64,000 bases of DNA, taken from the IMG/VR virus record IMGVR_UViG_3300046804_001959. The stretch is one strand, 5' to 3'. Origin of the DNA: a virus. Lineage: Duplodnaviria > Heunggongvirae > Uroviricota > Caudoviricetes. Shown in pieces: positions 34,873 to 52,425 of this stretch. The translations under genes and the position numbers were made by a program. The notes beneath the pieces are model-generated. The model did not search any database and had not been told where the DNA came from. It saw only the letters and a list, made by a program, of their open reading frames with translations. How positions within the stretch are numbered: the stretch's first letter is position 1; every line of letters begins with the position of its first letter.

Positions 34873-36045
34873 ATGCAACTGACTGAACATTTTACCCTCG
34901 AAGAGATGACTGTATCGCCTACTGCGAAGAAGCTCGGTCTTTCGAACCAACCAACTCCTGAACATATCGAAAACATGAAGTACTGCTGCGAGAAGATCCT
35001 CGAACCAGTTCGTGCACACTTCGGCAAGCCGGTAAAGATCAACTCATCTTATCGTTCGCCTCTCGTCAACAAGGCAGTCGGCGGATCGAAGACATCACAA
35101 CATGTCAACGGTCAAGCTATTGACTTTGAGATCGAAGGTATCGATAACAAAACAGTCGCTGACTGGGTTGCTGACAACCTCGAGTTCGATCAAGTGATCC
35201 TCGAATTCTACACTGCTGGTGATAAGAATTCTGGTTGGGTACACGCTTCGATCAAGAAGGAAGGTGGCAATCGGAAACAACGTCTGATAGCGACAAAATC
35301 AAAGGCGGGCGGGACTGTTTACAAGCCTGTTGCTGACTTTGATCCTTCGACTCTACCTGGTCAATCTCAGCCAGCAGCTCCCGCAGCCCGGCGTCAAGCC
35401 ACTGCTCCAGCTCCTGCCGCTCAATCTGGTCTCGGTCCATTAGCACAACTCCAAGCTAAATGCGGCTTAACGCCTGATGGTAAATGGGGACAGGGTACTT
35501 ATCGTGCAGCACGTGACTACTTCAAGCTAACGAATGCACAAGCTGCTCACTTCTTCGGCCAGTGTGCACACGAGTCGAACAACTTCAAGGCATTCTCTGA
35601 GAATCTAAACTACTCTGCTCAAGGTCTACAAGGAATCTTCAAGAAGTACTTCCCGAACGCAGCTATCGCCGCTCAGTATGCTCGTAAGCCAGAGAAGATC
35701 GCTAACAAGGTATACGGTGGTCGCATGGGTAACGGACCAGAATCGAGCGGAGACGGCTACAAGTATCGTGGACGCGGACCAATTCAGCTGACCGGAAAGG
35801 ATAACTACACCGCATTCTCTCAAGCAGTTGGTCGTCCGGATGTTCTGACAAACCCAGATCTTGTTGCAGGCGAGTTGGCTTTCGAGTCAGCATTGTGGTT
35901 CTTCCGTAAGAATGGTCTATTGGCTATCGCTGATAAGGGAACATCAGTTCCTGTGATCACACAGATCTCGAAGCGAGTCAACGGAGGAACGATCGGTCTA
36001 GATGATCGAATCAAGAAGACTCAACAGTTCTTCGCATGGGGATAA
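34873..36045 (+). CDS. Two-domain endolysin: N-terminal peptidase M15 (VanY-like), linker, then C-terminal GH19 lysozyme/chitinase-like domain
   Basis: M15 motifs SSYRSPLVNKAVGGSKTSQHVNGQAIDFEI. A Pro/Ala-rich linker. GH19 motifs GQCAHESNNFK, YRGRGPIQLTGKDNY. The only convincing plus-strand gene. Confidence 0.75.
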   Translation: MQLTEHFTLEEMTVSPTAKKLGLSNQPTPEHIENMKYCCEKILEPVRAHFGKPVKINSSYRSPLVNKAVGGSKTSQHVNGQAIDFEIEGIDNKTVADWVADNLEFDQVILEFYTAGDKNSGWVHASIKKEGGNRKQRLIATKSKAGGTVYKPVADFDPSTLPGQSQPAAPAARRQATAPAPAAQSGLGPLAQLQAKCGLTPDGKWGQGTYRAARDYFKLTNAQAAHFFGQCAHESNNFKAFSENLNYSAQGLQGIFKKYFPNAAIAAQYARKPEKIANKVYGGRMGNGPESSGDGYKYRGRGPIQLTGKDNYTAFSQAVGRPDVLTNPDLVAGELAFESALWFFRKNGLLAIADKGTSVPVITQISKRVNGGTIGLDDRIKKTQQFFAWG

Positions 36046-36170: not shown

Positions 36171-36704
36171 TTACTTTTCCTTACGTTCTGCTAGAAATTC
36201 TGCAGTCGAAGGAGCAGCAGATGTTTCCTCTTCAGTATCGATTTCTACCTTCTTCGGCTTCTTGTGTTCTGGAATGATAGCTTCAAGAGCGATCTTCAGA
36301 ATGCCGTTCAGGAGCGAGGCACCACGAATCTCGACATTATCTGCGAGACTGAAGGTGCGTGTGAAAGGACGCATAGCGAGTCCTTGATGTAGGATCTGAG
36401 GCCAAGTCCATTCACCGCGAGAGTCTTGCTCTGCTGGTTCACCTGACTTGACATTACCCTTGATGATGAGCTTGTCATCGACGATCTCGATCTCGAGATC
36501 TTGCTTACCGAAACCGGCTACTGCCATCTCGATAGTGTATCGATTGTCATCGATCTTTTTGAGATTATATGGAGGATATTTGGTGGCCAGCTTTGCAGTT
36601 TCGTCTGCTACTGTTGCCATTCTTTCGGCGACCTTATCGAATCCGACAAAGAAACGATCAAGGTCCTTAAACGTGTGGTTGAAGTCCCAACCTGCCATAT
36701 GCAT
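36171..36704 (-). CDS. Small heat-shock protein (Hsp20/alpha-crystallin family)
   Basis: YNLKKIDDNRYTIEMAVAGFGKQDLEIEIVDDKLIIKG...NGILKIAL is an alpha-crystallin domain. Confidence 0.75.
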   Translation of the reverse strand: MHMAGWDFNHTFKDLDRFFVGFDKVAERMATVADETAKLATKYPPYNLKKIDDNRYTIEMAVAGFGKQDLEIEIVDDKLIIKGNVKSGEPAEQDSRGEWTWPQILHQGLAMRPFTRTFSLADNVEIRGASLLNGILKIALEAIIPEHKKPKKVEIDTEEETSAAPSTAEFLAERKEK

Positions 36705-36732
36705 TCTCCTTATTAAGCGAGTTTATGTGATG

Positions 36733-37176
36733 TCACCCATTAGGCGTGACGGGTTTATTTATAAGATAAAGTTGGACGCCGGCTTCAAGAAACATCTGTT
36801 TTGTAACGTGCCAGTTAAAATGTGGGACATCATCGATAGGTTGATACGAGATCACCTTCTTGATGCCCTTCTGAATGATAGACTTCGCACACTCGTTGCA
36901 TGGAAGCAGTGGACTGTACAGCGTGCAGCCTTCTACTGAGAGCGGAGCGTTGTCGAGTGCATTACGTTCTGCGTGTGCTACGAAGAGGTGCTTCGTCGGT
37001 CGGTCAGCATATCTCTCTACGAGATCCTTCACTCCACGAGGAAATCCGTTGAAACCAACAGATACGATACGATTCTGCTTGTCGACGATCACGCATCCAA
37101 CCTGTGTAGTAGGATCCTTCGACCACGTGGCAATATGATCGGCGAGATCAAGAAAACGTTCAGACCACTTACTCAT
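36733..37176 (-). CDS. dCMP deaminase (cytidine/deoxycytidylate deaminase family)
   Basis: HAERNA (H-A-E zinc ligand) and PCNECA (PCxxC). Confidence 0.85.
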   Translation of the reverse strand: MSKWSERFLDLADHIATWSKDPTTQVGCVIVDKQNRIVSVGFNGFPRGVKDLVERYADRPTKHLFVAHAERNALDNAPLSVEGCTLYSPLLPCNECAKSIIQKGIKKVISYQPIDDVPHFNWHVTKQMFLEAGVQLYLINKPVTPNG

Positions 37177-37658
37177 TTCTTACCTGCTTTCAAAATACGT
37201 TCGCGAAGGGCCGACGAACTATAACTATGCTTGCGTGGGCAATAGTGAATTGGAATATCAAGATCAGATCCAGTAAAGTCAGTACGACCGACGTAGTCTT
37301 CACCAAGGAAACGAATGTCCCAGTCATAACCTACAAGCATATTGTAAAGATCTGCTTCAGTGTCGTACGGAACGACCTGATCAACATACTCGCACGACTC
37401 GACCTGCACAAAGCGCTCGAACAATCCTTGAATAGGCTTGTTCTTTTCAGGTCGATCGAGAGTAGGATCTGACTGAAGAGCTACTACCAAACGATCACAG
37501 TGCTGCTTAGCATCATACAACATGAGAACATGACCTGCATGGAACAGATCGAAGCAACTCGCTACGATTCCTACGCGTTCAGCCATTCTGCAATTACTCC
37601 GATTATAATGATAAAGGCAAGAAGACCCAAGCAACCCGTACCAGTTAAACCTTCCCAC
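37173..37658 (-). CDS. Cytidylyltransferase-like nucleotidyltransferase (second HxGH protein). The likely start is MAERVGIV.
   Basis: GIVASCFDLFHAGHVLML resembles the TagD/RfaE-domain-II signature. Confidence 0.55.
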   Translation of the reverse strand: MGRFNWYGLLGSSCLYHYNRSNCRMAERVGIVASCFDLFHAGHVLMLYDAKQHCDRLVVALQSDPTLDRPEKNKPIQGLFERFVQVESCEYVDQVVPYDTEADLYNMLVGYDWDIRFLGEDYVGRTDFTGSDLDIPIHYCPRKHSYSSSALRERILKAGKK

Positions 37659-38836: not shown

Positions 38837-39454
38837 TCAGCGTGAACGATAATTTGGTCTTGGAAATGAAAACTGCGCGTTTGATGTATTATCCTGATGA
38901 ACGTAGTGAAGGAACAGTTGGACTAATGAGTCGATCTCGAGAGCGTCTCTCCAGTGCCATTTTCCTCCGTAGTTTGTTCCTCCGTTAAAGATGATGGCAT
39001 CTCCTTCTTCAAGTTCCACTGGAATAGCATCGCTCTTATCATCTTTTTCGCTGAACCATAAAGCAACGTTGCCTTGTCCTCTCTTACACATAGTCAGAGT
39101 TAACGAATACTGACATGCTTCTCTGTCTCGATGAACGAGGAGCTCGGATCCATGATAATATTCTCTTGAATATGCATAAGAAGGAACCATATCATCGATT
39201 CCCCATATTTGCTCGGTAAGATGCTTGCAATAAAGGAGAATACTATCGTCAAAGATATTGTGTGCTACTCTTTCAATATTACCTGTTAAATTCGATCCAG
39301 TTTCGACTTCACGCAGAGTATCGCTCGTCTGCGTAATATCAATAAAAGATTTGTACAGTTCTATGATTTCTGGAGTAAGAACGTTTTTGATCTTCACGAA
39401 ACCATACTTTTCGAAGTGCTCTCTCAGAGCAGGCAATTCACTATCGTTAATCAT
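38837..39454 (-). CDS. 2OG-Fe(II) oxygenase (PhyH-like)
   Basis: LLVHRDRE (HxD) ... GGKWHWRD (distal His). 205 aa. Confidence 0.5.
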   Translation of the reverse strand: MINDSELPALREHFEKYGFVKIKNVLTPEIIELYKSFIDITQTSDTLREVETGSNLTGNIERVAHNIFDDSILLYCKHLTEQIWGIDDMVPSYAYSREYYHGSELLVHRDREACQYSLTLTMCKRGQGNVALWFSEKDDKSDAIPVELEEGDAIIFNGGTNYGGKWHWRDALEIDSLVQLFLHYVHQDNTSNAQFSFPRPNYRSR

Positions 39455-39460: not shown

Positions 39461-41518
39461 TCACTTACTTGTAGCTCTGTACACTCCGTCCCAGTTGAGT
39501 GGCTCATCTGTCTTCAGATCGTAGATTCGCTGTTCCATCATCTTGTAGTATGCAGCTAGTTCTCCTCCCCATAGAGGTCCCATTTCATGGACCATCGTCA
39601 TCGCACGATCCCAACGACCAGCACGATAGTGTCCAAGGAACAGATTGTGAGCTTTCTCTGCAGCGCTGTCCTTCTTCTCAAGAACAGTGAAGATACGAGC
39701 TGGTTCTGTCTTACCCTTCACAGCGATGAGATCGAGCTCGACTACTTGGTATACATCCCTAACCATGTCTGCTGTGACTGGCCCGGCAACGAGTTTAACT
39801 CCATAAGGTTTGGATTGACCTTCGAGACGAGAAGCCAGATTAACGCCGTCACCCAAGCAAGTATAATCGAAACGCTGATCACTACCCATATTGCCGACAA
39901 CCACAGTGGCAGTGTTAATGCCAAGACCCATCCCAAAAGCTGGGATCCCTTCTTTTTCGATTTCTGCATTGAACGCCTCCAAATCCTTTAACATATCCAT
40001 TGCCGTGCGTACAGCGTTCTTGGCATGGTCTGGATCGTCGAGCGGTGCGTTCCAAAATGCCATTTGTGCATCACCAATATACTTATCGAGTGTTCCCTTG
40101 TTATCGATGATACGCTTTGTCATGGCCGTCATGTAACGGTTCATGATCTTCGTCAGACCTTGTACATCTTCGCCGTAGTGTTCTGAGATGGTAGTAAATC
40201 CACGAACGTCAGTGAACATGATCGACAACTCTCTGCTTTCGCCACCCAACTTCAACAGTTCAGGGTTCTTCTGCAGTTTTTCTACCATGTCAGGCGAGAG
40301 GTATGTTCCAAACTGCTTCTTGATCTGCTGCTTCTGCAGATACTCGCTGATGAACTTGACTGTATAGATATGTACGTAGATCAGTAAAGTTGCGATTACG
40401 TTGAAGCTGATATCCAGTATTATACCATATGTGCCGAATAAGTAAACCGGTAAATACACATAGGCTGCAACGAGAGCAGCGATATATACATAAGAGAATC
40501 TAAAACGAGAGATCACTACCAGTGCCAGGAACAGAGCAAGAAACCCACCAAGATCTGCCAGCGGAACCCAGTTCGGGATCGAAACAGAGTCTCCGTTTAT
40601 CAGAGTCTCAAGAAGACTGGCTTGTAGCTGATGGGGATACTGCGCACCTGAAGGAGTCGCTACAGGGTTACTTAATCCAGCTGCAGTCACTCCAACAATC
40701 GCGATTTTACCTGTCAGATCAGGTAAAGGATCCGCACCGATTTCGTATGACTGGAATCGATAGTTCGGATTAATGAAAACTCGGCCGTACTCATCTGTCT
40801 TAATAGTTTCGAAAGAAGGAATTCGTAATGCCTCAACGCCCGTCTGATTTATCTTCGCTTGATACGAAGAGTCTCCTGCAGCTACACGGAGCATCTCTAC
40901 AGCAAATGACGGATAGTATTCGCCTGATGATTGAGATAGAAGAGGAACTCGGCGAACAACTCCATCTGATTCGGGAAGCGTCGACGTTACACCTACACCG
41001 ACGGCTGCTTCTTGAAGACTTTGTATATTACTTAGAACGCATGGGTATTGAGGAAGAAATTCAGTCGGCAGTCCGTCACCGATTACGGCAACCCCGGTAC
41101 GTCGAATCGTTTGCGTATTCTTTGATGGTGCACAATCGGACGTTACGGTCTGACTCAGAACAGTAGGATACTGATTTAAGGCATTAGCAAGAGCTGCGTC
41201 AGTCCCCATCCGATCAGGCTCAGGGTAAAGTATAGTACTGCCAACAAGAGCAGCCCCTCGACCATAAACCTCAGCATGAATGTCAGCGTAGACCTTACGC
41301 GGGAACGGATACTGTCCATATTTCTCGATCGCTTTCTCACCAATATTTATCAAAACGATCTGTTCCGACTTCTTCTGCTCTGACAGCATGAGATAGTCGT
41401 AAAACTTGAGACGTGTAGCTTCGACGAGGTAGGGATCTGAGATCTTGACAGCGAGAAGAATGGCAAAAGTAAACAGCGCCATCCACGGAGATAATAAAAG
41501 TTTAGTTACCTTTGACAT
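39461..41518 (-). CDS. CHASE2-domain sensor fused to a class III adenylate/guanylate cyclase. The likely start is MSKVTKLLL.
   Basis: N-terminal TM and a periplasmic CHASE2-like region, then 3-4 TM helices, then a cyclase domain with FTDVRGFTTISE and YIGDAQMAFWNAP. Confidence 0.75.
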   Translation of the reverse strand: MSKVTKLLLSPWMALFTFAILLAVKISDPYLVEATRLKFYDYLMLSEQKKSEQIVLINIGEKAIEKYGQYPFPRKVYADIHAEVYGRGAALVGSTILYPEPDRMGTDAALANALNQYPTVLSQTVTSDCAPSKNTQTIRRTGVAVIGDGLPTEFLPQYPCVLSNIQSLQEAAVGVGVTSTLPESDGVVRRVPLLSQSSGEYYPSFAVEMLRVAAGDSSYQAKINQTGVEALRIPSFETIKTDEYGRVFINPNYRFQSYEIGADPLPDLTGKIAIVGVTAAGLSNPVATPSGAQYPHQLQASLLETLINGDSVSIPNWVPLADLGGFLALFLALVVISRFRFSYVYIAALVAAYVYLPVYLFGTYGIILDISFNVIATLLIYVHIYTVKFISEYLQKQQIKKQFGTYLSPDMVEKLQKNPELLKLGGESRELSIMFTDVRGFTTISEHYGEDVQGLTKIMNRYMTAMTKRIIDNKGTLDKYIGDAQMAFWNAPLDDPDHAKNAVRTAMDMLKDLEAFNAEIEKEGIPAFGMGLGINTATVVVGNMGSDQRFDYTCLGDGVNLASRLEGQSKPYGVKLVAGPVTADMVRDVYQVVELDLIAVKGKTEPARIFTVLEKKDSAAEKAHNLFLGHYRAGRWDRAMTMVHEMGPLWGGELAAYYKMMEQRIYDLKTDEPLNWDGVYRATSK

Positions 41519-42965
41519 AGCTATATCCTGTACATGGTCCGGTCGAGCACGTAATCTCCATCTTGGCAGAGTCTGCCGCCGTAGAGTTCGTTTGCTGTAC
41601 CGTGACACCTATTCCAGGATTATTTATGATCAATTGAAACTGCTTGGTTGCGGATCCCTGCTGTGTGATATTAGCGTTTAGACCTCCAAAGGGAGCGGAG
41701 ACCTCAAGAAAGTGATTGCCTGTTCCCTGTTGCAATGCAGTCACAGCGTTGCCGTTTCCTAACAAGTTGAAGAATGCGGACTTAGATCCTGTATCATTCT
41801 GCTGAGCAGAGATCGTGTTGCCAGTACCAGAAGTTATGATCTCTGCATACTTGTTGTTATGCTGCTGAGTTAAGCTGAGTGTGTTGCCGCTTCCAGTAAT
41901 CGAAACTTCTGCTAAGTTCTTGCCGATAGCTGTCGTAGCTGTTCCTTGATTGATCGTAACAGTGTTGTTCGAACCGTTGATTACCATCGACTGGTTTCCG
42001 TTGACACCTCTTACTTGATTGTAGCCTGAGAACTGCTCGACATGAACGCTGTTAAAGTTGCCATAACTCTCGATATAGACTTTATTCTGAGTGATGGCAT
42101 TGGTCTGCTGGATCTTCGTCGACTGTGCATTACTGATCGCTGCAGCTGGATATGTAGGTTCGACTGGGCCTGGAGCTGGAGGTGGAGGAGCAGAAGATCC
42201 CGCGTTTGGTTGAACAGGAGTAAACGTAGTACCGTTCAGTAAAGTTGTTCCCTGTAACTGATCGATGAATAGGATAGGAGACAGCGCTGTGTCGCCAAGA
42301 TTGAACGAAGCAAAGCCGAGCGTGTATGTTCCATCTGACGGAACGGTGAACACTGCTACTTGCCATCCTGTTGCACCGTACGAGTTGGTAGAGTAGTTGC
42401 CTGTTCCAGTATTAGTGAACCCGAGAAGTGCAAAGTTCTGTGTCTGACCATTGATAGTAGGAACACCTGGGCCACCAGTCAGAGTGATCAGAGACCCGTC
42501 GTTGTATGGCATGTAGTCAGTTGAGACGTACTGCCATGCAAACGTGTAGGTAACACCTGCTTGTAGAGTAACCGTCTTACTGATCGAAGAAGCGTTGGTA
42601 GGCCACATGTTACCGTTCGAGTAGATCGTGTTCTTGATCGACGTGATAGCTGATCCTGCCAGACCGAGAGTCGTCATAGCATTATCAAACGTGGGAGAAC
42701 CGCCTCCAGCTTGAACGGATGCCATGTAGGTTCCGTATGGAGTGACTGTCCAGCACTTACCTCCACCTGGGCAGTAATTCTGCATACCCGTCGTAACTTG
42801 TACACCAGATCCGTTTGATCCCCATGTTGTACGAAGCGTAGTTGACCCGTTACTGACTGTCCAGCTCGAATAGTCTCCGTTCTCGAAACCGTAGTTGGTT
42901 ACTTGCGCGTGCACTACTTCACTGAAAAGTAGAAACAGTGCAGTTAGGATGTACCTTATCATCTT
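41502..42965 (-). CDS. Secreted protein: N-terminal beta-rich domain, Pro-rich linker, C-terminal curlin (CsgA-like) repeats. The likely start is MIRYILTALF.
   Basis: Signal peptide. APPPPAPGPVEP linker. Repeats of the type GNGNAVTALQQGTGN, SGNTLSLTQQHNN, TGNTISAQQNDTG match the curlin consensus S-x5-Q-x-G-x-G-N-x-A-x3-Q. Confidence 0.55.
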   Translation of the reverse strand, partial: KMIRYILTALFLLFSEVVHAQVTNYGFENGDYSSWTVSNGSTTLRTTWGSNGSGVQVTTGMQNYCPGGGKCWTVTPYGTYMASVQAGGGSPTFDNAMTTLGLAGSAITSIKNTIYSNGNMWPTNASSISKTVTLQAGVTYTFAWQYVSTDYMPYNDGSLITLTGGPGVPTINGQTQNFALLGFTNTGTGNYSTNSYGATGWQVAVFTVPSDGTYTLGFASFNLGDTALSPILFIDQLQGTTLLNGTTFTPVQPNAGSSAPPPPAPGPVEPTYPAAAISNAQSTKIQQTNAITQNKVYIESYGNFNSVHVEQFSGYNQVRGVNGNQSMVINGSNNTVTINQGTATTAIGKNLAEVSITGSGNTLSLTQQHNNKYAEIITSGTGNTISAQQNDTGSKSAFFNLLGNGNAVTALQQGTGNHFLEVSAPFGGLNANITQQGSATKQFQLIINNPGIGVTVQQTNSTAADSAKMEITCSTGPCTGYSYVKGN

Positions 42966-44110
42966 GTTCCTGACTCCTGAATCACAGTGATGTTGCCTTG
43001 AGGACGACCTGTTCCGGATGTGGTCCACTTGTCATCCATAAAGTTATAGACGTCTACGATCCCATTCTGTACAGAAACGAACTGTAGCTCTGTATCCTTT
43101 GGAAGCCATGTTACAACGAGTTGGTTCTTATCGTCAGAGATTCGCGAGTATACCCATCCAACCTGAACCTGTTTCTTAAAAGTAGGAGAAACGTTAGTAT
43201 AGATTGGTTCCTTCGGTCTCTGACCATCGTTGTACTCGGCATATACTTGTTGAAGTTCTTCTTGTGTAGGCATACGAATCACTGCCACAGCAACCTCTTC
43301 GGTGCTGTCTCCTCCAGTATTCGGATCTTTGTTATCGTCTGAAGCGGCTTTCGCTGGGTTGACATACTTCTTCAAAGCTTCACGTGCTGCATTGATAAGA
43401 GATTGACCGTCATCAGTCTCAAGGGGAGCGATCTGAATGTTGTTGTCCATGCCTTTCATCGTAGGATTAATTACGACAGGAGGAGCAGGAGGAGCATATC
43501 CGTTTTCTACAACGGTAGCTTGGAACGGCTTTGTCAGAGATACAACACCCGCAGCAGTCATGACATCGATCGCTCCAGCTGGACACTCGAAGTTGATCTT
43601 TGTGATATCTTTGTCGTTGTAGCATTCTGGAACGAGAACGACTGTAGATCTGCCTGCTTCGTCGACTGACATGACGAAGTCTGTACCTCTTACGGCAATC
43701 GTCGCGGTGGGTGTCCGTATACCAACACCGCGAGCGTTACCATGAGCGATAGCACCAGAAGTGTATCGCGCTGTTCCCAGAGCCAGCTTAAGACCGAGCT
43801 TACCTTTGCTCTTATTGTTTCCATCATAGACGAAATCATCGATGAGTAACCTTGAGTTCTGTGTGATGTTGACGGTTGTAGCATCCACGAAGGTGATCTT
43901 GAATCGACCTTGTGAATTGGTAGAAACTGTGTCGTTCTTTTCGATGCCAGAACCTGGAGCAGCCGGAACTACTTTCGCTCCGCGCTTGACGGTTCCTCCG
44001 CCCTTAAACTCCGATATCGATCCCACACCAGCAAAGGCAGGGACCGATATCAGGAGTAAGAGATTAATGACCAGTCTTGATATTAAACGTACCATTTGAA
44101 CCCACTGCAT
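42959..44110 (-). CDS. FecR-domain secreted/periplasmic protein
   Basis: Signal peptide. FKITFVDATTVNITQNSRLLIDDF...ALGTARYTSG...TATIAVRGTDF matches the FecR domain pattern. Confidence 0.55.
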   Translation of the reverse strand: MQWVQMVRLISRLVINLLLLISVPAFAGVGSISEFKGGGTVKRGAKVVPAAPGSGIEKNDTVSTNSQGRFKITFVDATTVNITQNSRLLIDDFVYDGNNKSKGKLGLKLALGTARYTSGAIAHGNARGVGIRTPTATIAVRGTDFVMSVDEAGRSTVVLVPECYNDKDITKINFECPAGAIDVMTAAGVVSLTKPFQATVVENGYAPPAPPVVINPTMKGMDNNIQIAPLETDDGQSLINAAREALKKYVNPAKAASDDNKDPNTGGDSTEEVAVAVIRMPTQEELQQVYAEYNDGQRPKEPIYTNVSPTFKKQVQVGWVYSRISDDKNQLVVTWLPKDTELQFVSVQNGIVDVYNFMDDKWTTSGTGRPQGNITVIQESGTR

Positions 44111-44837
44111 TGATATTTACTACGGTTTCTGAAGCTCCGTATTGCTGGGTTGTAACGGTATTAAGCGAACCTGTTAGGTTGACGTAAAGCGAGTGACCAA
44201 ACGTTCCACCGAGACCCGTCTGTGTAACGTTGAACGCGTTATAGTCTCCTGTTACAAGAAGAGTCTGAGTAGCGTTAGGCGAGAGAGCGTCGATGGTGAA
44301 AGTGTTGTTGTCACCGCTGATGTCCATCGAGTTACGAATGTTTGCACCCGAACCATGGAATGTGAGCGAGTTTGAGTCACCAGTAAAACGAGCGTTCATA
44401 TCAAACTGATTACAGATCGAATCAGTTACGAGAGTGCCGCAACGAATGTCTGCGGTGTTGAGATCACCGATCTGACGAATGGTTGCAGTCGCGATGCCTG
44501 TACCACCTGTAGCAGATACTAGACCCATGTACAGCTGGTTGCCGTTACCTGTTTGAATAGCGATAACGCTTTGATTATCACCGCGAAGGTAGATAGGATC
44601 GTTGACATCACCGATGATGTTAGCAGTGCCGGTCTGTACAACGTTAACGTCGACGTTACCACCTTCTTGATCGATGTAGACCTTGTTGGTAGTCGCCACT
44701 GCTGCAGCTGTGACTTCGTTCGGAGAAGTAGTTACGATTGTAGGTGGAGTTGGAGCTGTAGGCAACACGGCCTGTGCGATCGCAGAGGTTCCATAAACAA
44801 GAGCAGCACCAACGATGAAAGACTTAACGAGTCTCAT
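44064..44837 (-). CDS. Curlin-repeat protein (CsgA/CsgB-like amyloid subunit). The likely start is MRLVKSFIVG.
   Basis: Signal peptide ending AIAQA. Repeated Q-x-G-x-(G)-N units: VYIDQEGGNVDVNVVQTGTANI, IAIQTGNGNQ, NAFNVTQTGLGG, NTVTTQQYGAS. Confidence 0.55.
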   Translation of the reverse strand: MRLVKSFIVGAALVYGTSAIAQAVLPTAPTPPTIVTTSPNEVTAAAVATTNKVYIDQEGGNVDVNVVQTGTANIIGDVNDPIYLRGDNQSVIAIQTGNGNQLYMGLVSATGGTGIATATIRQIGDLNTADIRCGTLVTDSICNQFDMNARFTGDSNSLTFHGSGANIRNSMDISGDNNTFTIDALSPNATQTLLVTGDYNAFNVTQTGLGGTFGHSLYVNLTGSLNTVTTQQYGASETVVNINAVGSNGTFNIKTGH

Positions 44838-45648
44838 TGGTTGTTTCCTTCTGTTTAAATCTCCATAGATTCTTCTTTTCACCATCCTTGATCAACTCAA
44901 CAACGGCCGTTTCTATGGCTGAACGGATCGCATAACTACCTGCTTCGTTCGATGTCTGCTGACCATCGAATTCAAAGGCCTTGGTGGCCATATCAAAGAA
45001 TTTAAATGCCGTAACTCCCTCGGAAGTAGAGAGCACGTTCTTTTCTACAGTTACAGACGTCAGCACTTCACCGGTCTGAACCGAAACGAGGCGCATACTA
45101 ATCGTAACTTGATCTTCTGAGTACTGTTGATACGGGCCGATGCCGAGGAATCGAGCTCCTGTACCACCGGTCTTGGTGTTCGAACTATAGTCGATGATTC
45201 CTCCTTCAAGGATCAGACCGGCTACCATCAGAGGAGGAAGAGGTTCGGCGTTCTCACCTGCAACTTGCTCTCTCATCTGACGAACGAGCTGACGTTCTTT
45301 GATCAGCGAATCGATACCTACACGCTCGACTGGACGAAACCACTTTCCGCCTCCAACATCTGCCAAAGTTTTGATAACGTAGGCATCTGCACCTTGAGTC
45401 ACAGCAGTTGAGAAGCTGGCTTGAGTAGCAGAAGGCTTACGTTGTCCTGTACGATCGGTAAACGAGTAGATGGCGATAGGAATTACCTGACCGTCGAGTT
45501 CGGGTAAGTTCTTGAAGAGTTTCGGGTTTGCAAATCTTTCTACCTCAGCATCTGATCTCAAGATATAAGACTGGTTAGCCATCGGATGCAGTGCACCTAC
45601 GCAGCCTGATGTAGCAAGAAGAATCGGAAGTACGAGTAACTTTTTCAT
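44824..45648 (-). CDS. csgG: Curli production/transport lipoprotein CsgG
   Basis: Lipobox LLATSGC. IAIYSFTDRTGQRKPSATQASFSTAVTQGADAYVIKTLADVGGGKWFRPVERVGIDSLIKERQLVRQ aligns convincingly with E. coli CsgG (VSVYNIQDETGQFKPYPASNFSTAVPQSATAMLVTALKDSRWFIPLERQGLQNLLNERKIIR). Confidence 0.8.
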   Translation of the reverse strand: MKKLLVLPILLATSGCVGALHPMANQSYILRSDAEVERFANPKLFKNLPELDGQVIPIAIYSFTDRTGQRKPSATQASFSTAVTQGADAYVIKTLADVGGGKWFRPVERVGIDSLIKERQLVRQMREQVAGENAEPLPPLMVAGLILEGGIIDYSSNTKTGGTGARFLGIGPYQQYSEDQVTISMRLVSVQTGEVLTSVTVEKNVLSTSEGVTAFKFFDMATKAFEFDGQQTSNEAGSYAIRSAIETAVVELIKDGEKKNLWRFKQKETTNETR

Positions 45649-45657
45649 GACTTCTCC

Positions 45658-46098
45658 TTAGAATGCAAACGTGGCGATGGGAACAGTCACGACGGTAGTG
45701 TTACCTTTTGCATCTACGACAGTCAACTTTACTTCAGTACCAGTCTTGACGTAACTGATCGTGTTTCCGTCAAGATTAAATGTTCCGGCTTGTGCAGAAC
45801 CTTCTGCAAATAGATTGTTAGAAAGCTGTGTAGCCAACTGAGCATACACTTGGCTGGTGAACAGCGCCATGAACTTAGCAAGAGGAGTGTTAGCTGCCTC
45901 TGCTTTGGCAAGAGCAGCTTTCGCTGCTTCAGCATCCTTGATAGCTTGTTCACGAGATCTTTCTTGAGCGTCTATCGATTGCACATGAGAAGACCACCCG
46001 TAGCCATTAAAGCTCGGGCTCTTAAACTGTTGTACTATCGGATCAGCTTTTGCTTGGCTGCTTGTCAGCAGGGCCAGCAGGAGCAGACTCTTTCTCAT
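45658..46098 (-). CDS. CsgF-like curli assembly protein
   Basis: Signal peptide. The mature N-terminus QQFKSPSFNGYGW parallels CsgF (FQFRNPNFGGNPN). A beta-rich C-terminus ends in an aromatic residue. Confidence 0.5.
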   Translation of the reverse strand: MRKSLLLLALLTSSQAKADPIVQQFKSPSFNGYGWSSHVQSIDAQERSREQAIKDAEAAKAALAKAEAANTPLAKFMALFTSQVYAQLATQLSNNLFAEGSAQAGTFNLDGNTISYVKTGTEVKLTVVDAKGNTTVVTVPIATFAF

Positions 46099-46172
46099 CT
46101 TGTTTTTCCTTCTTCAGCGTCAGCTTCTTGTCAGAAGAAAGATTAAACTCAAGCGAGAAAACTTTGAGGATC

Positions 46173-46439
46173 TCAATTTTTAGGGATATTGTCACTGTGA
46201 TCCTCCTTAATCTGCAATACTACACTCACCTTCTGGTTTAGTCTAATTAAATCGTTGTCTAACATGCGAATACGATCGATCAAAGCGATAAGAATGACAT
46301 TCGTCTCGCCAATCAACGGCATCAGTTTATCTGTAACAAATTTGTAAATAAAGAACACGAAGTATCCCATGCCTACTGAGGCAACGATAGGAAATCCGTA
46401 CTGTTTTACTAGTTCAGCGACTACATTTAAATCCATCAA
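46173..46439 (-). CDS. Small membrane protein, holin-like (BhlA/UviB-type architecture), paralogue 1
   Basis: 88 aa. N-terminal TM QYGFPIVASVGMGYFVFFIY followed by a coiled C-terminus. Paralogous to the next gene. Confidence 0.4.
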   Translation of the reverse strand: MMDLNVVAELVKQYGFPIVASVGMGYFVFFIYKFVTDKLMPLIGETNVILIALIDRIRMLDNDLIRLNQKVSVVLQIKEDHSDNIPKN

Positions 46440-46723
46440 TCTCTTCTCGCATCGTTCTTGCCATCGGCTCGAGCGATACGATCGAGATCCGGCTTCAGTC
46501 CAAGTGCTGAACTTACAACCGCATCCACGCGAATGATATCATGGTTCATGGTCTTGACACGATTGTCGAGGCCCATGATGATACCTTGCATTCCTTTAAT
46601 AGCTTTCACAACACTTTCTAAAATATAATTGATGACAAAATAAACGAAAACTCCACCGAGCAAAGCAGCCGCGATGGGGAAACCGACATCAGCAATTAAC
46701 TTAAATATAGCGTCGTAGTTCAT
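46436..46723 (-). CDS. Small membrane protein, holin-like, paralogue 2
   Basis: 95 aa. DVGFPIAAALLGGVFVYFVINY, then MGLDNRVKTMNHDIIRVD. Shares GFPI...D..I.R...L..D.IR motifs with paralogue 1. Confidence 0.4.
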   Translation of the reverse strand: MNYDAIFKLIADVGFPIAAALLGGVFVYFVINYILESVVKAIKGMQGIIMGLDNRVKTMNHDIIRVDAVVSSALGLKPDLDRIARADGKNDARRD

Positions 46724-46738
46724 ACGACTTATTTATAA

Positions 46739-47758
46739 TTACCTCGTCACCGAGGCACTACACTTCGTGCATATATTGTTATAAGCCCGATCGATGGTTT
46801 CTACGTGCTTATCACTGAACCACATCTCACGAATATCTTGTTCAATGATGTTGCCAAACACGTAGTCAAAATTGTAGTCGTTACAGCAGAGAATAGCATC
46901 GCCTCTTGAATTGACGCTCAACCACTCGTAGATCCTATCACCCCAGTTTTGACAACCTACGACCGTACGGTTCTTCATTCGATCTTCCATGTACTTGGCT
47001 TCGCTGATGTAGTCAGCGATGAGACCAGTACGATCGATGAGATCTGATTTCTCAATATCAAAGTTAGGGAACATCTTCGCTGCCAACTCTACCTGCTGTT
47101 GATGTTCACCGGTTCTGATATCAAGATCGATATCTAACTCATCGAACTTCGGACCCTTCTGAAGAGATCCGGTCTTGAAAGATACTTCATCGAGACCGTT
47201 GATGATAAGCTTGACTCTACCTTGAAGCTTGCGTGTAACAGCATGCTTATGTAGGTTCTGAAGATTCGCCATCAAGTCATCGAATCTCTTCTCAGGAAAA
47301 CCAGAGCGCTTCGACCACAGCTCTGCATCAGAGATGATAGGCACGTTGAGGCCGATCTCTTGGATTACAGAAGGAGTATACTTGTTGATGATATCGAGTT
47401 TCTCTGGTGTAAGGTTGACACCGTTACTCAGAATGAACGTCTTCAGACCGTAGTGCTTAGCCAGCTCGAGAAGCTTCTCGAAGTCCTTGTAAAGGAGTAC
47501 TTCGCTGTAGTGAGTAGTCAGAAATAGATCGAACCGCGGACTGACTACTCCGTTGCCGTTTGGAGTGTTCCTTTCAACTATCAGCTTACGGAATATCTTT
47601 TCGACATCCTCGATCGGCATCTGCTGTTTGCCTTCTTCAGGCTGAGGAATGTATCTAACAGGACAATACCAGCACTTGGCATTACAGAACCCAAAGAGGT
47701 CGATAGCCAAACGCTGGATCTGATAGGACTTCAAACGAGAACGAATAAATTGAGACAC
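46739..47758 (-). CDS. Radical SAM enzyme with a C-terminal SPASM-like cysteine cluster
   Basis: CNAKCWYC is CxxxCxxC. The C-terminal CCNDYNFDYVFGN...CTKCS cluster is SPASM/twitch-like. 339 aa. Confidence 0.7.
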   Translation of the reverse strand: MSQFIRSRLKSYQIQRLAIDLFGFCNAKCWYCPVRYIPQPEEGKQQMPIEDVEKIFRKLIVERNTPNGNGVVSPRFDLFLTTHYSEVLLYKDFEKLLELAKHYGLKTFILSNGVNLTPEKLDIINKYTPSVIQEIGLNVPIISDAELWSKRSGFPEKRFDDLMANLQNLHKHAVTRKLQGRVKLIINGLDEVSFKTGSLQKGPKFDELDIDLDIRTGEHQQQVELAAKMFPNFDIEKSDLIDRTGLIADYISEAKYMEDRMKNRTVVGCQNWGDRIYEWLSVNSRGDAILCCNDYNFDYVFGNIIEQDIREMWFSDKHVETIDRAYNNICTKCSASVTR

Positions 47759-48548: not shown

Positions 48549-48590
48549 AAAAAAACGCACTCAGAACAAGCCTGAGTGCGTTTTTTTTCG
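48549..48590. terminator. Bidirectional rho-independent terminator
   Basis: A7, then CGCACTCAG...CCTGAGTGCG, then T8. A U-run follows the hairpin on either strand. Downstream of the OMP gene. Confidence 0.65.
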
Positions 48591-48601: not shown

Positions 48602-49171
48602 TCAGAACGTATGAGTTACGTTCAGGCCAAGAGCGTCAGAGCGAGTTGTGCCAGTGGTGCGATAGTAGTTAGCACCTACAGCATTACCAGAACCTACATC
48701 GACTGCAAGACCTGCATGCAGACGGTTTTCAGTCAGACGACCGGTTCCTTCGAACGCTTCGCGATGGCGATATCCAGCGGTCAAGGCAACGGGACCATAA
48801 AGCGCGCGCTTCGCCTTTACTGCTCCACCCCAGAAAACAAAGTTTGCACCTTGCTTGAGGTTCTGTCCAATTTCACCATACGCTTCTGTATGGAAACCAA
48901 GAACGTCCGGAAGACGTGGACCTACACGAGCTGCGACCTTCGAGTCAACTGCGCCTTCGCGAGCTGCCTGCTTGGTCTGAAACTCAGCGCCATAATTCAA
49001 GAATGAATTAAGAGGGGCGGAATAGTCGACACGATACTCGGTCGAGTCAGGAGCCCGTCCACCACGAACATCAGCAAAACGAACTTCTGCTGTTACAGTT
49101 CCAGCCATTGCTGGTGCTGCAGAGATAGCAGAGAGAGCCAAAGCCGAAAGTGATAGAATAGTCTTATTCAT
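48602..49171 (-). CDS. Outer-membrane beta-barrel protein (Lom/OmpX/OmpW-like)
   Basis: Signal peptide (ALALSAISAAPAMA). Alternating amphipathic beta-strands, a C-terminal ...THTF aromatic, and Tyr/Gly/Arg-rich girdle residues. 189 aa. Confidence 0.55.
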   Translation of the reverse strand: MNKTILSLSALALSAISAAPAMAGTVTAEVRFADVRGGRAPDSTEYRVDYSAPLNSFLNYGAEFQTKQAAREGAVDSKVAARVGPRLPDVLGFHTEAYGEIGQNLKQGANFVFWGGAVKAKRALYGPVALTAGYRHREAFEGTGRLTENRLHAGLAVDVGSGNAVGANYYRTTGTTRSDALGLNVTHTF

Positions 49172-49832: not shown

Positions 49833-50474
49833 TTATCCATTGGCTCGCAGCCAGTTTAGGATATTTTCAGGTGAAGTCTCACCGTAAGGATCGGTCTCGC
49901 AGTTGTCTTCGAAGCCCGGCTCGATGAACCACTTCTCGATCTTGCCGTTGTTGACGATGCATGCATAGCGCCACGAACGTTCACCGAAACCGAGGTTGTC
50001 CTTCTGAACTGCCATCTGCATATCACGAGTAAAGCGAACAGAACCGTCAGGGATCATCTTCACCTTCTTGATCTTCTGCTGCTTAGCCCAGCAATTCATC
50101 ACGAAAGCATCGTTGACCGACACACAGACGATGTCGTCGATGCCGAGTTCCTTGAATGCCTTGTAATTTTCTTCAAAGCCAGGAAGTTGATACGTAGAAC
50201 ATGTGGGAGTGAAGGCACCTGGAAGAGAGAAGAGGACTACGCGCTTCTTGGCAAAGTAGTCGAAAGAACTCTTATCTTCCCAACGAAACGGATTCGGGCC
50301 TTCGATCGAATCGTCTCTTACGCGTGTCTTGAATACCACATTAGGCACAACTTCAGGGAGTTCCTGAACCGTGCCGTTTTCAAACTTATGCCAATAGCGC
50401 TTGACTGGAATTGTTTCTGCCATAATATTCTCCATGAATGAAAGCGGAGTGGAAGGATTTGGTTGTACCTTCAT
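49833..50474 (-). CDS. Peroxiredoxin (Prx5-like / AhpC-TSA family). The start is probably internal (MENIMAE or MAETIP).
   Basis: FSLPGAFTPTCS contains the peroxidatic Cys. The thioredoxin fold continues with DDIVCVSVNDAFVMNCWA. Confidence 0.75.
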   Translation of the reverse strand: MKVQPNPSTPLSFMENIMAETIPVKRYWHKFENGTVQELPEVVPNVVFKTRVRDDSIEGPNPFRWEDKSSFDYFAKKRVVLFSLPGAFTPTCSTYQLPGFEENYKAFKELGIDDIVCVSVNDAFVMNCWAKQQKIKKVKMIPDGSVRFTRDMQMAVQKDNLGFGERSWRYACIVNNGKIEKWFIEPGFEDNCETDPYGETSPENILNWLRANG

Positions 50475-50981: not shown

Positions 50982-51056
50982 TGGCTCCTCGAATAGGATT
51001 CGAACCTATGACCGATCGGTTAACAGCCGATTGCTCTACCGCTGAGCTATCGAGGA
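50982..51056 (-). tRNA. tRNA-Asn (anticodon GTT)
   Basis: Hand-folded cloverleaf. Acceptor TCCTCGA/TCGAGGA, D arm GCTC/GAGC, anticodon loop CTGTTAA, T loop TTCGAAT, CCA encoded. Confidence 0.8.
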
Positions 51057-51077
51057 ATGAAACTCTTTATATTCTGA

Positions 51078-51112
51078 ACCTACATTATATATTAAATAAT
51101 GTACATGGTAAA
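51078..51112 (-). promoter_or_regulatory. Promoter: TGTACA-N17-TAGGTT immediately upstream of tRNA-Asn
   Basis: The motif lies about 20 nt 5-prime of the tRNA 5-prime end. Confidence 0.5.
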
Positions 51113-51222
51113 AGACGCAGTTTTTTACAGAAACCGCCATCCCAAAAACTGGAACCTGCATTATACCCAAGCAGCTTGGATGCTAGCTATCTATTGTCCG
51201 GTATCTCCGACATTTCGATCTT

Positions 51223-51300
51223 TGGTACCCTCGGTAGGATTCGAGCCTACAACCTCTCGCTTCGTAGGCGAGTGCTCTATTCCAGTTGAGCTACGAGGGC
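51223..51300 (-). tRNA. tRNA-Arg (ACG)
   Basis: Hand-folded. Anticodon stem CTCGC/GCGAG, anticodon loop CTACGAA. Confidence 0.75.
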
Positions 51301-51470
51301 ATTAAATGGCCGCCAATCCTTTGCAGGGACTTTAACACATATAGCCAAGATAATTGGTTGGCCGACCCATTTTTCTATATGTGCTGCTAGCCCTCCGGTA
51401 GCGACTAGACGTCTTACGCTTTCCGAACTCTAGCTGTCGTCGAGGATTCGAACCCCAACGGGCGATAAAC

Positions 51471-51545
51471 TGGTACCCGGTGACGGGATTGAACCGCCGA
51501 CCCTCTCGGTGTAAACGAGACGCTCTACCGCTGAGCTAACCGGGC
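51471..51545 (-). tRNA. tRNA-Val (TAC)
   Basis: Hand-folded. Anticodon stem TCTCG/CGAGA, anticodon loop TTTACAC. Confidence 0.75.
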
Positions 51546-51546
51546 A

Positions 51547-51630
51547 TGGTACTCCAAGAGGGACTCGAACCCCCACGCACTAGGCACTAGTTCCTAAGAC
51601 TAGCGTGTCTACCATTCCACCATTGGAGCA
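51547..51630 (-). tRNA. tRNA-Leu (TAG), type II
   Basis: Hand-folded. Anticodon stem CTAGT/ACTAG, loop CTTAGGA. Long variable arm TGCCTAGTGCGTG. Confidence 0.75.
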
Positions 51631-51857
51631 TTCAAAACTTTGGGATCTTGTGTCTTGCTTCTCATAGGTGAGATTTAACGGTTCTACCAGCAGTCCAACA
51701 TTCAGCGGGTTCCCTATTCACTTCGCTTAGTCCCAAACTTGGCTGACCCGTGGGACTCGAACCCACCTTAGCGCTTATATCTTTGCATAATACTCCCGAG
51801 CATACAATGCAAAGACCCCGGGGCGCATTCTCACCTGACTTAGGGCCAATAAACTCA

Positions 51858-51933
51858 TGGTGCCTTCGGAGGGAGTCGAACCCCCGACACGTGGATCTTC
51901 AATCCACTGCTCTACCAACTGAGCTACAAAGGC
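51858..51933 (-). tRNA. tRNA-Phe (GAA)
   Basis: Hand-folded. Anticodon stem GTGGA/TCCAC, loop TTGAAGA. Confidence 0.8.
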
Positions 51934-51959
51934 AAAACTTCTTAGAAGAATGCACTGAT

Positions 51960-52345
51960 TGCCTATTAACACGCATCTTAAGCGGGACTTACATCAATAC
52001 ATTCATCTAAGAAGTCTTAGATCAGGATGAGATTACTCCTGAGTAATGAGAGTCTTTGAGCCGTACCGAATCCCTTGCGAGGATTGTTAACCCGTTATCC
52101 ACTCGAGCTGTCGCCAGTCATCGAGTATCTCTCAGTGCTGCCTTTTTTAGCGTCTGGCGTTTGACGCGTCACATCATGCTATTCGACCATCAATCTTCCG
52201 CCTGCCTTGCGAGCAGTTCGAAGGCGCTAACCTCCTACGTCTTCAATCCAATCAATCACTTCCGCCTTGCGAGCTTCCATGAACCACATTCCTTTCGGTG
52301 TGGTATTAAGCACCTTTCACATGATGCCGGGACAGTCTTTGCGTT
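51960..52345 (-). ncRNA. Candidate structured ncRNA segment A (ORF-free, between tRNA-Phe and the class I TAG tRNA)
   Basis: No credible ORF. Repeated CTTGCGAG hairpin-loop modules, for example AATCC-CTTGCGA-GGATT and CTGC-CTTGCGA-GCAG. Lies inside the tRNA transcription unit. Confidence 0.4.
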
Positions 52346-52349
52346 TTTA

Positions 52350-52425
52350 TGGCGTGCAAAGTTGGGATCGAACCAACTACCTACATATCCTAAAAATGTT
52401 GCTCTACCAGATGAGCTATTTGCAA
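52350..52425 (-). tRNA. Class I tRNA with anticodon TAG (identity undetermined; U1xC72 mismatch)
   Basis: Hand-folded. D arm GCTC ATCTGGTA GAGC, anticodon arm ACATT-TTTAGGA-TATGT, T arm GTTGG TTCGATC CCAAC. Short variable arm despite a Leu-type anticodon. Confidence 0.5.

Follow-up and report, generated by a model that had tools for sequence, protein, structure and literature searches.

A diverged relative of the pelagiphage curli-type module in a T4-like phage, with an exchangeable head on one of its curlin-like proteins

Introduction

What use could a T4-like phage have for a curli-type secretion system? The question is raised by a locus in the window, the 64,000-nucleotide stretch of DNA analysed here (IMG/VR record IMGVR_UViG_3300046804_001959, Caudoviricetes), for which a preliminary description had proposed such a module, made of four consecutive genes at positions 41502-46098. 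Profile matches to CsgF and CsgG and the T4 core genes nearby bear out this identity, but the module had been delimited incompletely: the interval holds five genes, a FecR-domain gene (42959-44095) lying between the two curlin-like genes, and the module extends on both sides to 39461-46723, taking in the genes of an adenylate cyclase and of tm1 and tm2, both small membrane proteins, all three of which had been missed. The accompanying view that a module of this kind is not expected in a T4-like phage no longer holds, given its presence in the GenBank annotation of two cultured isolates, Pelagibacter phage HTVC008M and Methylophilales phage Melnitz, and its publication for marine phages, as a viral curli/T8SS module, in three papers of 2020-2022 that also cover FecR, the cyclase and both curlin-repeat genes (PMC7029224, PMC9004378, PMC9599517). 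The carriers described are HTVC008M pelagimyophages, Melnitz and HTVC023P-type podophages (Zaragoza-Solas 2020; Buchholz 2022; Wittmers 2022).

Layout and phage context of the module

The module is an eight-gene unit on the minus strand, in the order tm1-tm2-csgF-csgG-cur1-fecR-cur2-cyclase, with co-directional and tightly packed genes in a single operon arrangement (Table 1). CsgE, CsgC and CsgD are not evident among the eight operon ORFs, each of which is assigned to another family; their absence there fits the close spacing of its genes, and alphaproteobacterial curli loci likewise do without all three (PMC9599517).

Table 1. Features of the module (positions in the window)
Feature	Position	Strand	Basis or remark
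T4-type late-promoter motif TATAAATA	46730..46737	-	6 nt upstream of tm1 ATG
tm1, 95 aa, bitopic membrane protein	46436..46723	-	PHROG 18771, E 6e-30
tm2, 88 aa, tm1 paralogue	46173..46439	-	PHROG 18771, E 2e-30
CsgF homologue, signal peptide AKA↓DP	45658..46098	-	Pfam PF10614, 67.1 bits
CsgG outer-membrane lipoprotein channel	44824..45648	-	Pfam PF03783, 178 bits
cur1, 257 aa, secreted beta-solenoid with curlin-like repeats, candidate main subunit of the fibre	44064..44837	-	Curlin_rpt 22.0 bits
FecR-domain periplasmic protein, signal peptide AFA↓G	42959..44095	-	Pfam FecR 48.1 bits
cur2, 486 aa, secreted head + linker + solenoid fusion	41502..42962	-	Mainly structure and orthologues
CHASE2-sensor class III adenylate cyclase, membrane-bound	39461..41518	-	Pfam CHASE2 124.6 + Guanylate_cyc 65.6 bits

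The T4-like context recognised earlier holds: the module is surrounded by gp43, gp41, an RNA ligase, gp44, gp45, UvsX and a virion protein, and the gp43 of the window is 51% identical to cyanomyophage polymerases. HTVC008M and Melnitz share this T4-like (Kyanoviridae-type) backbone as well as the same eight genes in identical order, all of whose proteins are orthologous to those of the window. The differences lie in protein identity, which is only 34-50% (29% for cur1), in GC content (47% versus 34-37%), in the head of cur2, and in the fact that the window belongs to a separate metagenomic clade. Judged from these sequence relationships, the locus is a diverged member of the pelagiphage-type viral T8SS module. 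Its kinship to known phages is visible solely at the protein level, since a megablast search with the module returned nothing from 50,697 phage records. The clade consists of uncultivated T4-like phages that are very abundant in metagenomes (987 metagenomic clusters for cur2 and 3163 for tm1); sample names lead us to suspect freshwater lakes as its habitat, and its host is unlikely to be of the same low-GC streamlined type as the hosts of HTVC008M and Melnitz.

Omega values of 0.03-0.17 (about 0.03 for tm1 and 0.06 for cur1) show that the module is under strong purifying selection; a pseudogenised remnant was considered and rejected.

The secretion channel

The long similarity to Escherichia coli CsgG that had been noticed by eye is confirmed over the full length of the protein, with a phmmer E-value of 3.4e-46 against the solved E. 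coli structure 3x2r and 39% identity, and the Pfam score lies far above the family cut-off of 20.8 bits. Identity to the HTVC008M and Melnitz orthologues is 45-48%, and the lipobox matches PROSITE PS51257. The constriction of the E. coli channel is reportedly formed by Y51, N55 and F56; in the alignment only F56 is kept here, Y51 and N55 being replaced by Ser, and the constriction loop (TGQRKPSATQASFSTAV, compared with TGQFKPYP-ASNFSTAV in E. coli) is one residue longer. This loop is variable in other phage CsgGs too.

CsgF was likewise recognised correctly. It matches PF10614 at positions 5-132 of 132 (E 2e-18; cut-off 25.8 bits), and its mature N-terminus, DPIVQQFKSPSFNG, fits the FxxPxFxG pattern (the FKSPSFNG motif), which recurs in the CsgF of all three phage lineages (window, HTVC008M and Melnitz) at overall identities of 37% to the HTVC008M and 34% to the Melnitz orthologue. 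A single-sequence phmmer search among PDB sequences found no solved relative. Of the features for which the preliminary description had asked for predictions, the lipobox is present in CsgG, and signal peptides in CsgF and, as described next, cur1.

How close does this bring the module to the bacterial curli system? With the csgBAC-csgDEFG loci of E. coli and Salmonella it shares a lipoprotein channel of the CsgG family and an adaptor, CsgF, and its putative substrates, Sec-exported like those of E. coli, likewise carry strand-turn-strand repeats of about 22 aa with G-x-G-N...Q motifs. The window differs in that CsgE, CsgC and CsgD are not evident in its operon, in the length of its substrates (257 and 486 aa), their Cys pairs and the one large head, in the gathering of all genes in one co-directional operon with added signalling genes, and in the loss of Y51 and N55. 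The holdfast anchor of Caulobacter (HfaA/HfaB/HfaD), in which an adhesin is held by amyloid-like anchor proteins whose export depends on HfaB, a lipoprotein of the CsgG family, offers an analogy only: the match to the NCBIfam HfaB family is weak (E 2.8e-5; 23.5 bits against a family cut-off of 300), and no homology to HfaA or HfaD was found in the module.

Two curlin-like proteins, one with an exchangeable head

That the module encodes two secreted proteins with curlin-like repeats stands as far as signal peptides, solenoid and repeats are concerned, whereas the support of hidden Markov models for a 'curlin repeat' identity is thin: against a Curlin_rpt (PF07012) cut-off of 20.7 bits, cur1 is marginal, scoring barely above it, and cur2, with 13.9 bits, falls below. 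Both proteins carry conserved Cys pairs, and for both the predicted fold is a solenoid like that of CsgA. For cur1, which has a signal peptide (AQA↓V) and shares 29% identity with the proteins that bear a curlin annotation in HTVC008M and Melnitz, the AlphaFold2 model reaches pLDDT 80-98 for residues 50-257 and shows a strand-arc-strand unit recurring about every 11 residues. For cur2, the curlin-like assignment depends mainly on structure and orthologues; its repeats are four G-x-[GS]-N-x-h-x-h-x-Q motifs spaced 22-27 aa apart. CsgA was absent from the PDB-sequence matches of the cur1 and cur2 alignment profiles, and a Foldseek search of cur1 against the PDB returned generic beta-helices alone (E at least 0.085).

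The fusion architecture proposed for cur2 is confirmed in kind and corrected in detail. A beta-rich head (residues ~20-262) is followed by a Pro-rich linker (~263-290), the curlin-like solenoid and a C-terminal CxxxxC, but the start codon is the ATG at 42962 rather than 42965, overlapping the stop of the FecR-domain gene as ATGA, a position on which independent gene calls agree, and the head measures ~243 aa rather than ~270. Foldseek matches of this head in the PDB are weak, being to CBM61, CBM16 and CBM4 jelly rolls (E at least 0.016, TM about 0.5), so that a carbohydrate-binding fold is merely weakly suggested; no paralogue of the head was found elsewhere in the window. The type of head changes with the lineage: it is autotransporter-type in the window, PA14 in HTVC008M, missing altogether in Melnitz and of other types, discoidin among them, elsewhere. 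We read cur2 as an adhesin of modular design, in which the curlin stalk stays constant and the head can be swapped, a feature absent from the 2020-2022 papers.

Two small membrane proteins and a late-promoter motif

The most conserved protein of the module is tm1 (92-98% identity within the close clade), which has one hydrophobic segment, an N-terminal TM helix, and a charged, helical C-terminus. Its identity to the orthologues of the known phages is 50%; that of tm2 to its counterparts in HTVC008M and Melnitz, which occupy the same position, is 44-46%. Homologues of tm1 occur in six of the 50,697 phage records, and all six records also carry CsgG. In PMC9599517 the genes preceding csgF are labelled "histidine kinase"; we equate these genes with tm1 and tm2 on the assumption that position suffices. 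Histidine-kinase identity was rejected: the two proteins are only 95 and 88 aa long and have no HisKA or HATPase_c domain. Tm1 has no Pfam or NCBIfam domain, a Pfam scan of both proteins at E ≤ 10 gave nothing but YvrJ (E 0.13), NCBIfam offered for tm2 a sub-threshold match alone (E 0.069), and none of the 120 best homologues carries a Pfam domain. To judge from their domain content, tm1 and tm2 are not kinases, a point absent from the 2020-2022 papers.

Upstream of tm1 stands TATAAATA, the motif of T4 late promoters. The window holds eight exact matches to it, as against 1.0 expected, every one of them on the coding strand, and in an alignment of 25 sequences the motif lies 4-8 nt before the tm1 ATG in the window and in all 24 related loci (5 nt in 18 loci). 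The sequence upstream of tm1 otherwise differs among the 25 loci while the motif is kept; its conservation there is another point absent from the 2020-2022 papers. The module is probably transcribed late from a T4-type promoter, a function ascribed to the motif from what is established about T4 late promoters. The motif stands so near the first ATG that the transcript would have little or no leader; late-promoter use and leaderless translation are both inferred from this motif.

The FecR-domain protein and the CHASE2 cyclase

The FecR-domain protein (PHROG 37870, E 9e-58) is 40-44% identical to its HTVC008M and Melnitz orthologues, and the cyclase 40-42%. TM segments lie on either side of the CHASE2 domain of the latter, and alignment with CyaB (3r5g) and CyaC (1wc1) finds its catalytic set complete, comprising the two metal-binding Asp, the Lys/Thr pair (ATP) and Asn/Arg; it is classified as a class III adenylate cyclase with an intact catalytic site.

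A secreted FecR-domain protein beside a cyclase is also found in bacteria, as a FecR-domain/CHASE2 cyclase pair in Campylobacterota, and in Sinorhizobium meliloti CHASE2 cyclases are accompanied by Clr targets with FecR or TPR domains. The neighbours of the bacterial pair, however, are genes for a TPR protein and a phosphodiesterase rather than T8SS genes, and in the window, unlike there, the curlin-adhesin gene cur2 sits between the FecR gene and the cyclase. Among 77 genuine bacterial csgG loci, none had a FecR or cyclase gene adjoining csgG, and none showed the whole eight-gene arrangement expected of a bacterial ancestor.

What is the module for?

We favour, at a probability of roughly 0.6, a viral curli module that, late in infection, would equip the host cell with adhesive fibres. 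At that stage Sec would export CsgF, CsgG, cur1, cur2 and the FecR-domain protein; lipidated CsgG would form the outer-membrane channel, with CsgF as its cap, and cur1 and cur2 would cross it unfolded and polymerise on the outside of the cell into amyloid-like fibres of beta-solenoids. Most of the fibre would consist of cur1; cur2 would co-assemble via its curlin block and expose a head of lectin or adhesin type, so that infected cells or their debris become sticky. In the envelope, the FecR-domain protein of the periplasm may act together with the CHASE2 cyclase as a sensor that raises cAMP. Fibre formation, adhesion and their timing would, on this account, pay off ecologically through the capture of neighbouring cells, attachment to particles or the masking of receptors.

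Several observations count against fibres of this kind. Cells infected with Melnitz did not clump in the work of Buchholz et al. (PMC9004378); the PF07012 scores are low, the PDB profile search yielded no CsgA and the Foldseek beta-helix matches have E-values above 0.08. Two of the three constriction residues of E. coli CsgG are replaced, and a Cys-paired head of ~240 aa would need to thread a narrow channel unfolded in a system whose operon has no evident CsgE-like gate.

Could CsgG and CsgF have been reused instead as a gated outer-membrane pore, pinholin- or secretin-like, that times lysis, the repeat proteins being irrelevant or otherwise used? This was put forward for Melnitz from structural modelling and synteny (Buchholz et al. 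2022, PMC9004378), and here the late-promoter motif suits a lysis-related role, tm1 and tm2 are small and bitopic with charged C-termini, a holin-like architecture, and the constriction residues are unlike those of E. coli. Yet its premise was that csgA/B are missing, whereas two secreted curlin-like solenoid proteins are conserved under strong purifying selection; the endolysin is encoded separately in the window (34873-36045); CsgG, placed in the outer membrane, cannot depolarise the inner one; and the restriction of tm1 homologues to CsgG-carrying phage records argues that they are not general lysis genes. We regard a bare pore as unlikely.

Still more doubtful is the idea, raised in PMC7029224 and PMC9599517, that the CsgG pore, ungated without CsgE, admits nutrients or cofactors whose supply is sensed by FecR and the cyclase. 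A CsgE-like gene is indeed not evident in the dense operon, and the FecR domain is classically tied to ferric-citrate signalling (PMC9599517), but the FecR-domain protein comes without FecI or FecA partners and resembles the bacterial FecR-domain/CHASE2-cyclase pair instead, and an uptake channel leaves CsgF, two conserved secreted solenoid proteins and the adhesin head unexplained.

That the module is bacterial DNA mis-assembled onto phage DNA, or a decaying passenger, is scarcely credible even though three module-bearing contigs had been assigned to MAGs of bacteria (Bacteroidetes, Pelagibacter and Luteolibacter), for these hold the phage-specific tm1/tm2, FecR and cyclase genes as well and look like mis-binned phage contigs, GC is the same as in the rest of the window (47.5% versus 47.1%) with T4 core genes on both sides, more than 25 independent contigs show it in this phage setting, and many, of up to 171 kb and 356 kb, repeat the same junctions, two cultured isolates carry it, and omega is low; chimerism or contamination, a doubt attached to the locus at the outset, is rejected as far as sequence data go.

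To return to adhesive fibres, a more specific scenario may be offered tentatively. Cur2 may be a curli-anchored adhesin whose head is exchanged between lineages like a receptor-binding protein; switched on late via a leaderless transcript, the module may coat infected cells or debris with lineage-specific sticky fibres before lysis, capturing hosts or particles or masking receptors, with the FecR/CHASE2 cyclase pair coupled to this via cAMP.

The module kind itself has already been described, and the window extends a known phenomenon. Phage curli systems are abundant in aquatic viromes, and the published hypotheses on them clash: fibre-mediated "sibling capture", a lysis pore or an uptake channel. 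The swappable head on a constant stalk, the small proteins that are not kinases and strictly co-occur with CsgG, and the conserved late motif together favour fibres and adhesion over a bare pore, and the module is not limited to phages of low-GC streamlined marine hosts.

Layout and genomic setting

The minus-strand unit at 39461-46737 comprises eight densely packed genes, whose refined start sites agree with independent gene calls (see table). Between adjacent genes there are either overlaps of 4-47 nt or 10-nt gaps, the sole exception being a spacer ahead of csgF, the operon's only sizeable gap, in which a weak CTCAA...TTGAG hairpin with a T-rich run behind it can be made out by eye; this hairpin could serve as a read-through attenuator. 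CsgG aligns end to end with the solved E. coli CsgG (E 3.4e-46) and carries a lipobox, and AxA-type signal peptides are present in CsgF, in the FecR-domain protein and in the two secreted repeat proteins, cur1 and cur2. Given this match and the Pfam scores of CsgF and CsgG, the curli-like module proposed in the preliminary description is real. That description was largely right in its interpretation but incomplete in its delimitation, counting four genes in an interval (41502-46098) that holds five and leaving out the cyclase as well as both small membrane proteins, tm1 and tm2.

Coordinates of module genes, late-promoter motifs and neighbouring features
Feature	Position	Strand	Details
tm1	46436-46723	-	95 aa
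tm2	46173-46439	-	88 aa
tm2-csgF spacer	46099-46172	-	74 nt
csgF	45658-46098	-	Pfam CsgF 67 bits
csgG	44824-45648	-	Pfam CsgG 178 bits
cur1	44064-44837	-	257 aa; Pfam Curlin_rpt 22.0 bits
FecR-domain gene	42959-44095	-	378 aa; Pfam FecR 48 bits
cur2	41502-42962	-	486 aa; Pfam Curlin_rpt 13.9 bits
CHASE2 adenylate cyclase	39461-41518	-	685 aa; Pfam CHASE2 125 bits, Guanylate_cyc 66 bits
TATAAATA copies	13098, 17938, 28657, 36756, 46730, 49640, 54959, 61620	-	exact match
Endolysin-like gene	34873-36045	+	Peptidase_M15 + GH19 lysozyme/chitinase fold
PhyH/2OG-Fe(II)-oxygenase-like gene	38837-39454	-	6 nt downstream of cyclase
Radical SAM/SPASM gene	46739-47758	-	directly upstream of module
Intrinsic terminator	48549-48587		strong; 17-bp stem
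Barrel-like protein gene	48602-49171	-	189 aa; signal peptide
tRNA block	50982-55718	-	26 genes
tRNA-Asp	54873-54949		9 nt downstream of motif at 54959-54966

The window is that of a T4-like phage. To the left of the module are genes for gp43 DNA polymerase (51% identical to cyanomyophage polymerases), gp41 helicase, an RNA ligase and a virion protein; to its right are those for the gp44 clamp loader and the gp45 clamp, together with the tRNA block, which covers nearly all amino acids. UvsX is encoded as well. The GC content of the module (47.5%) equals that of the window (47.1%), and a chimeric insertion, which the preliminary description had listed as a refuting outcome, is thereby excluded.

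Several neighbours deserve mention in their own right. Only some clade members (L003-L005, L008, L011, L012 and L018 among the related loci) have the radical SAM/SPASM gene at this place, and for this reason it is counted as lying outside the module. Just upstream of its own module, HTVC008M, a Pelagibacter phage, has a 206-aa gene with an annotated phytanoyl-CoA-dioxygenase domain; no similarity between its product and the PhyH-like protein of the window was found by BLASTP (E <= 1e-3). The 189-aa protein has an outer-membrane-barrel-like sequence and no Pfam or PHROG match, and its gene is followed by the terminator. The endolysin-like gene, which adjoins gp43, is the only plus-strand one among the annotated genes examined. 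Hsp20, dCMP deaminase, a heptose kinase/adenylyltransferase-like protein and peroxiredoxin are also encoded near the module (36171-37658 and 49833-50474).

Published relatives

A CsgG tblastn search of 50,697 phage records matched HTVC008M and four isolates of the Methylophilales phage Melnitz. The island recurs in these homologous phages, their GenBank annotation listing, in the same series, CsgF, CsgG, a curlin-associated protein, a FecR-domain protein, another protein with curlin repeats, and an adenylate/guanylate cyclase. CsgF and CsgG were described in pelagimyophages by Zaragoza-Solas et al. 2020, who proposed "sibling capture" (PMC7029224); Buchholz et al. 2022 regarded csgA/B as missing and suggested a pore that times lysis (PMC9004378); and Wittmers et al. 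2022 reported the order "HK"-CsgF-CsgG-CsgA/B-FecR-CsgA/B-AC in podo- and myophages, inferred an alphaproteobacterial origin, and found the module expressed in metatranscriptomes and its genes at 65/65 GOV2 stations (PMC9599517). Since the module had thus been annotated and published, the earlier view that it is not expected in a T4-like phage is outdated.

HTVC008M and Melnitz have orthologues of all eight module proteins, seven of them at 29-50% identity, with cur2 of the window alignable to that of HTVC008M through the repeat block only; DNA-level similarity to the window module is nevertheless lacking, and their GC content is 34-37% versus 47%. Much closer are 22 IMG/VR contigs of up to 171 kb, on which this module recurs with protein identities of 60-98%. 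The window's clade is abundant, as shown by the 987 cur2 clusters and 3163 tm1 clusters recovered in homologue searches. Within it, dS is saturated, omega is 0.03-0.17 for every module gene, and conservation is highest for tm1 and lowest for cur2; judged by these substitution patterns, all eight genes are maintained by selection. In one locus, L107, an inserted TerC gene on the opposite strand separates cur2 from the cyclase gene. The window module is a diverged new member of a known system, adding a few testable details and no new phenomenon.

The repeat proteins and the cur2 head

Are cur1 and cur2 curlins? Of the two curlin-repeat proteins initially claimed, cur1 lies marginally above the Pfam Curlin_rpt cut-off of 20.7 bits and cur2 below it, and profiles of both gave negative results against the PDB. 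The HTVC008M orthologue of cur2 scores 33 bits on Curlin_rpt, and cur2 itself contains four G-x-[GS]-N-x-h-x-h-x-Q repeats at regular spacing. AlphaFold models built from alignments of 53-60 homologues show one strand-arc-strand unit per ~11 residues in cur1 (pLDDT 80-98, residues 50-257) and in the C-terminal half of cur2 (mostly about 80-90, ~residues 330-430). The phage repeat blocks match genes that in genuine bacterial csg loci lie 1.5-2.5 kb from csgG, at the csgA/B position, and cur1 and cur2 cross-match across lineages. Thin as the sequence evidence is, we conclude that cur1 and cur2 are solenoid proteins of the curlin type that have diverged too far to be easily recognised by HMMs. 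Closely spaced cysteine pairs are invariant across the clade (C133/C142 in cur1; C64/C70 and C472/C477 in cur2) and recur in HTVC008M and Melnitz at the equivalent cur1 and cur2 C-terminal places, unlike in E. coli CsgA, which to our knowledge has no cysteine; they may represent disulfide-stapled turns.

The head of cur2 (residues ~20-262) matches no Pfam family. Among 1.84 billion representatives, an exhaustive HMMER search identified 350 relatives, including type V autotransporters with ESPR, PATR and an autotransporter barrel, giant Big_9/cadherin-like adhesins and other curlin fusions; cur2 homologues bear the name "fibronectin-binding autotransporter adhesin" in some sources. At the same position HTVC008M has a PA14 domain (27.7 bits). 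The window-type head recurs in L107 together with a discoidin (F5/8 type C) domain, and in L108 an unrelated head of ~150 aa is combined with the same Pro-rich linker and a repeat block of 46% identity. Melnitz cur2 is headless, and in L022 and L028 the FecR and cyclase genes have no cur2 between them. A constant stalk with an exchangeable adhesin/lectin head argues for a surface-exposed binding function. As far as PMC7029224, PMC9004378 and PMC9599517 go, the last of which does not contain the term "PA14", this finding is new.

The signalling genes

The cyclase has a periplasmic CHASE2 domain flanked by TM segments and all class III catalytic residues, among them a Lys/Thr pair of the kind typical of ATP-using enzymes. 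Pairing of a secreted FecR-domain protein gene with a CHASE2 cyclase is recognised in Campylobacterota (PMC9239204), and the S. meliloti Clr regulon is a related case (PMC5498481). Among 80 loci from reference genomes, FecR, cyclase and tm1/tm2 adjoin csgG in only three, L027 (RGCF01000015), L028 (NHJA01000016) and L032 (CAYWLC010000001), deposited as Bacteroidetes, Ca. Pelagibacter and 'Luteolibacter' MAG contigs, respectively; all three have the phage-type module and are probably mis-binned phage contigs. This survey independently supports the published statement that fusion of T8SS with the signalling pair is virus-specific. L032 has its cyclase inverted and yielded no cur2 homologue.

tm1 and tm2 are paralogues with a single TM segment and charged helical tails, occurring in the phage collection only in CsgG-carrying records. 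They occupy the place of the "histidine kinase(s)" in the layout of Wittmers et al., a label that is unsupported for these proteins, as neither has a kinase domain or any other significant Pfam/NCBIfam match.

A late-promoter motif at tm1

The T4 late-promoter consensus TATAAATA occurs in eight exact copies in the window, all on the coding strand, versus 1.0 expected. One lies 6 nt ahead of the tm1 ATG, unlike three of the four copies with a clearly assigned downstream gene (13098, 17938 and 36756), which lie 52-65 nt before the start codon. The motif stands 4-8 nt ahead of the tm1 ATG in 25/25 aligned sequences (the window and 24 related loci), at exactly 5 nt in 18 loci. The sequence farther upstream varies, and in several loci it belongs to another gene; the Melnitz motif overlaps the ATG. 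This conserved motif, a putative tm1 expression signal, is new here. By analogy with the well-established late promoters of T4, late transcription is predicted to start at or next to the tm1 AUG, which would produce a leaderless message. The copy ahead of tRNA-Asp suggests that a late promoter may drive tRNA transcription.

What the module may do

The best-supported reading is a self-sufficient secretion-and-assembly system for surface fibres with an envelope-sensing cAMP branch. Late in infection, the module would place curlin-type fibres with an adhesin head on the surface of the infected cell. CsgG/CsgF have also been proposed to act as a pore only, and CsgG as an uptake channel; these are less probable alternatives, since neither accounts for secreted solenoid proteins that are conserved and under selection, or for the adhesin head. 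For the fibre-forming system, capture of neighbouring cells, attachment to particles and masking of receptors on debris are candidate ecological benefits.
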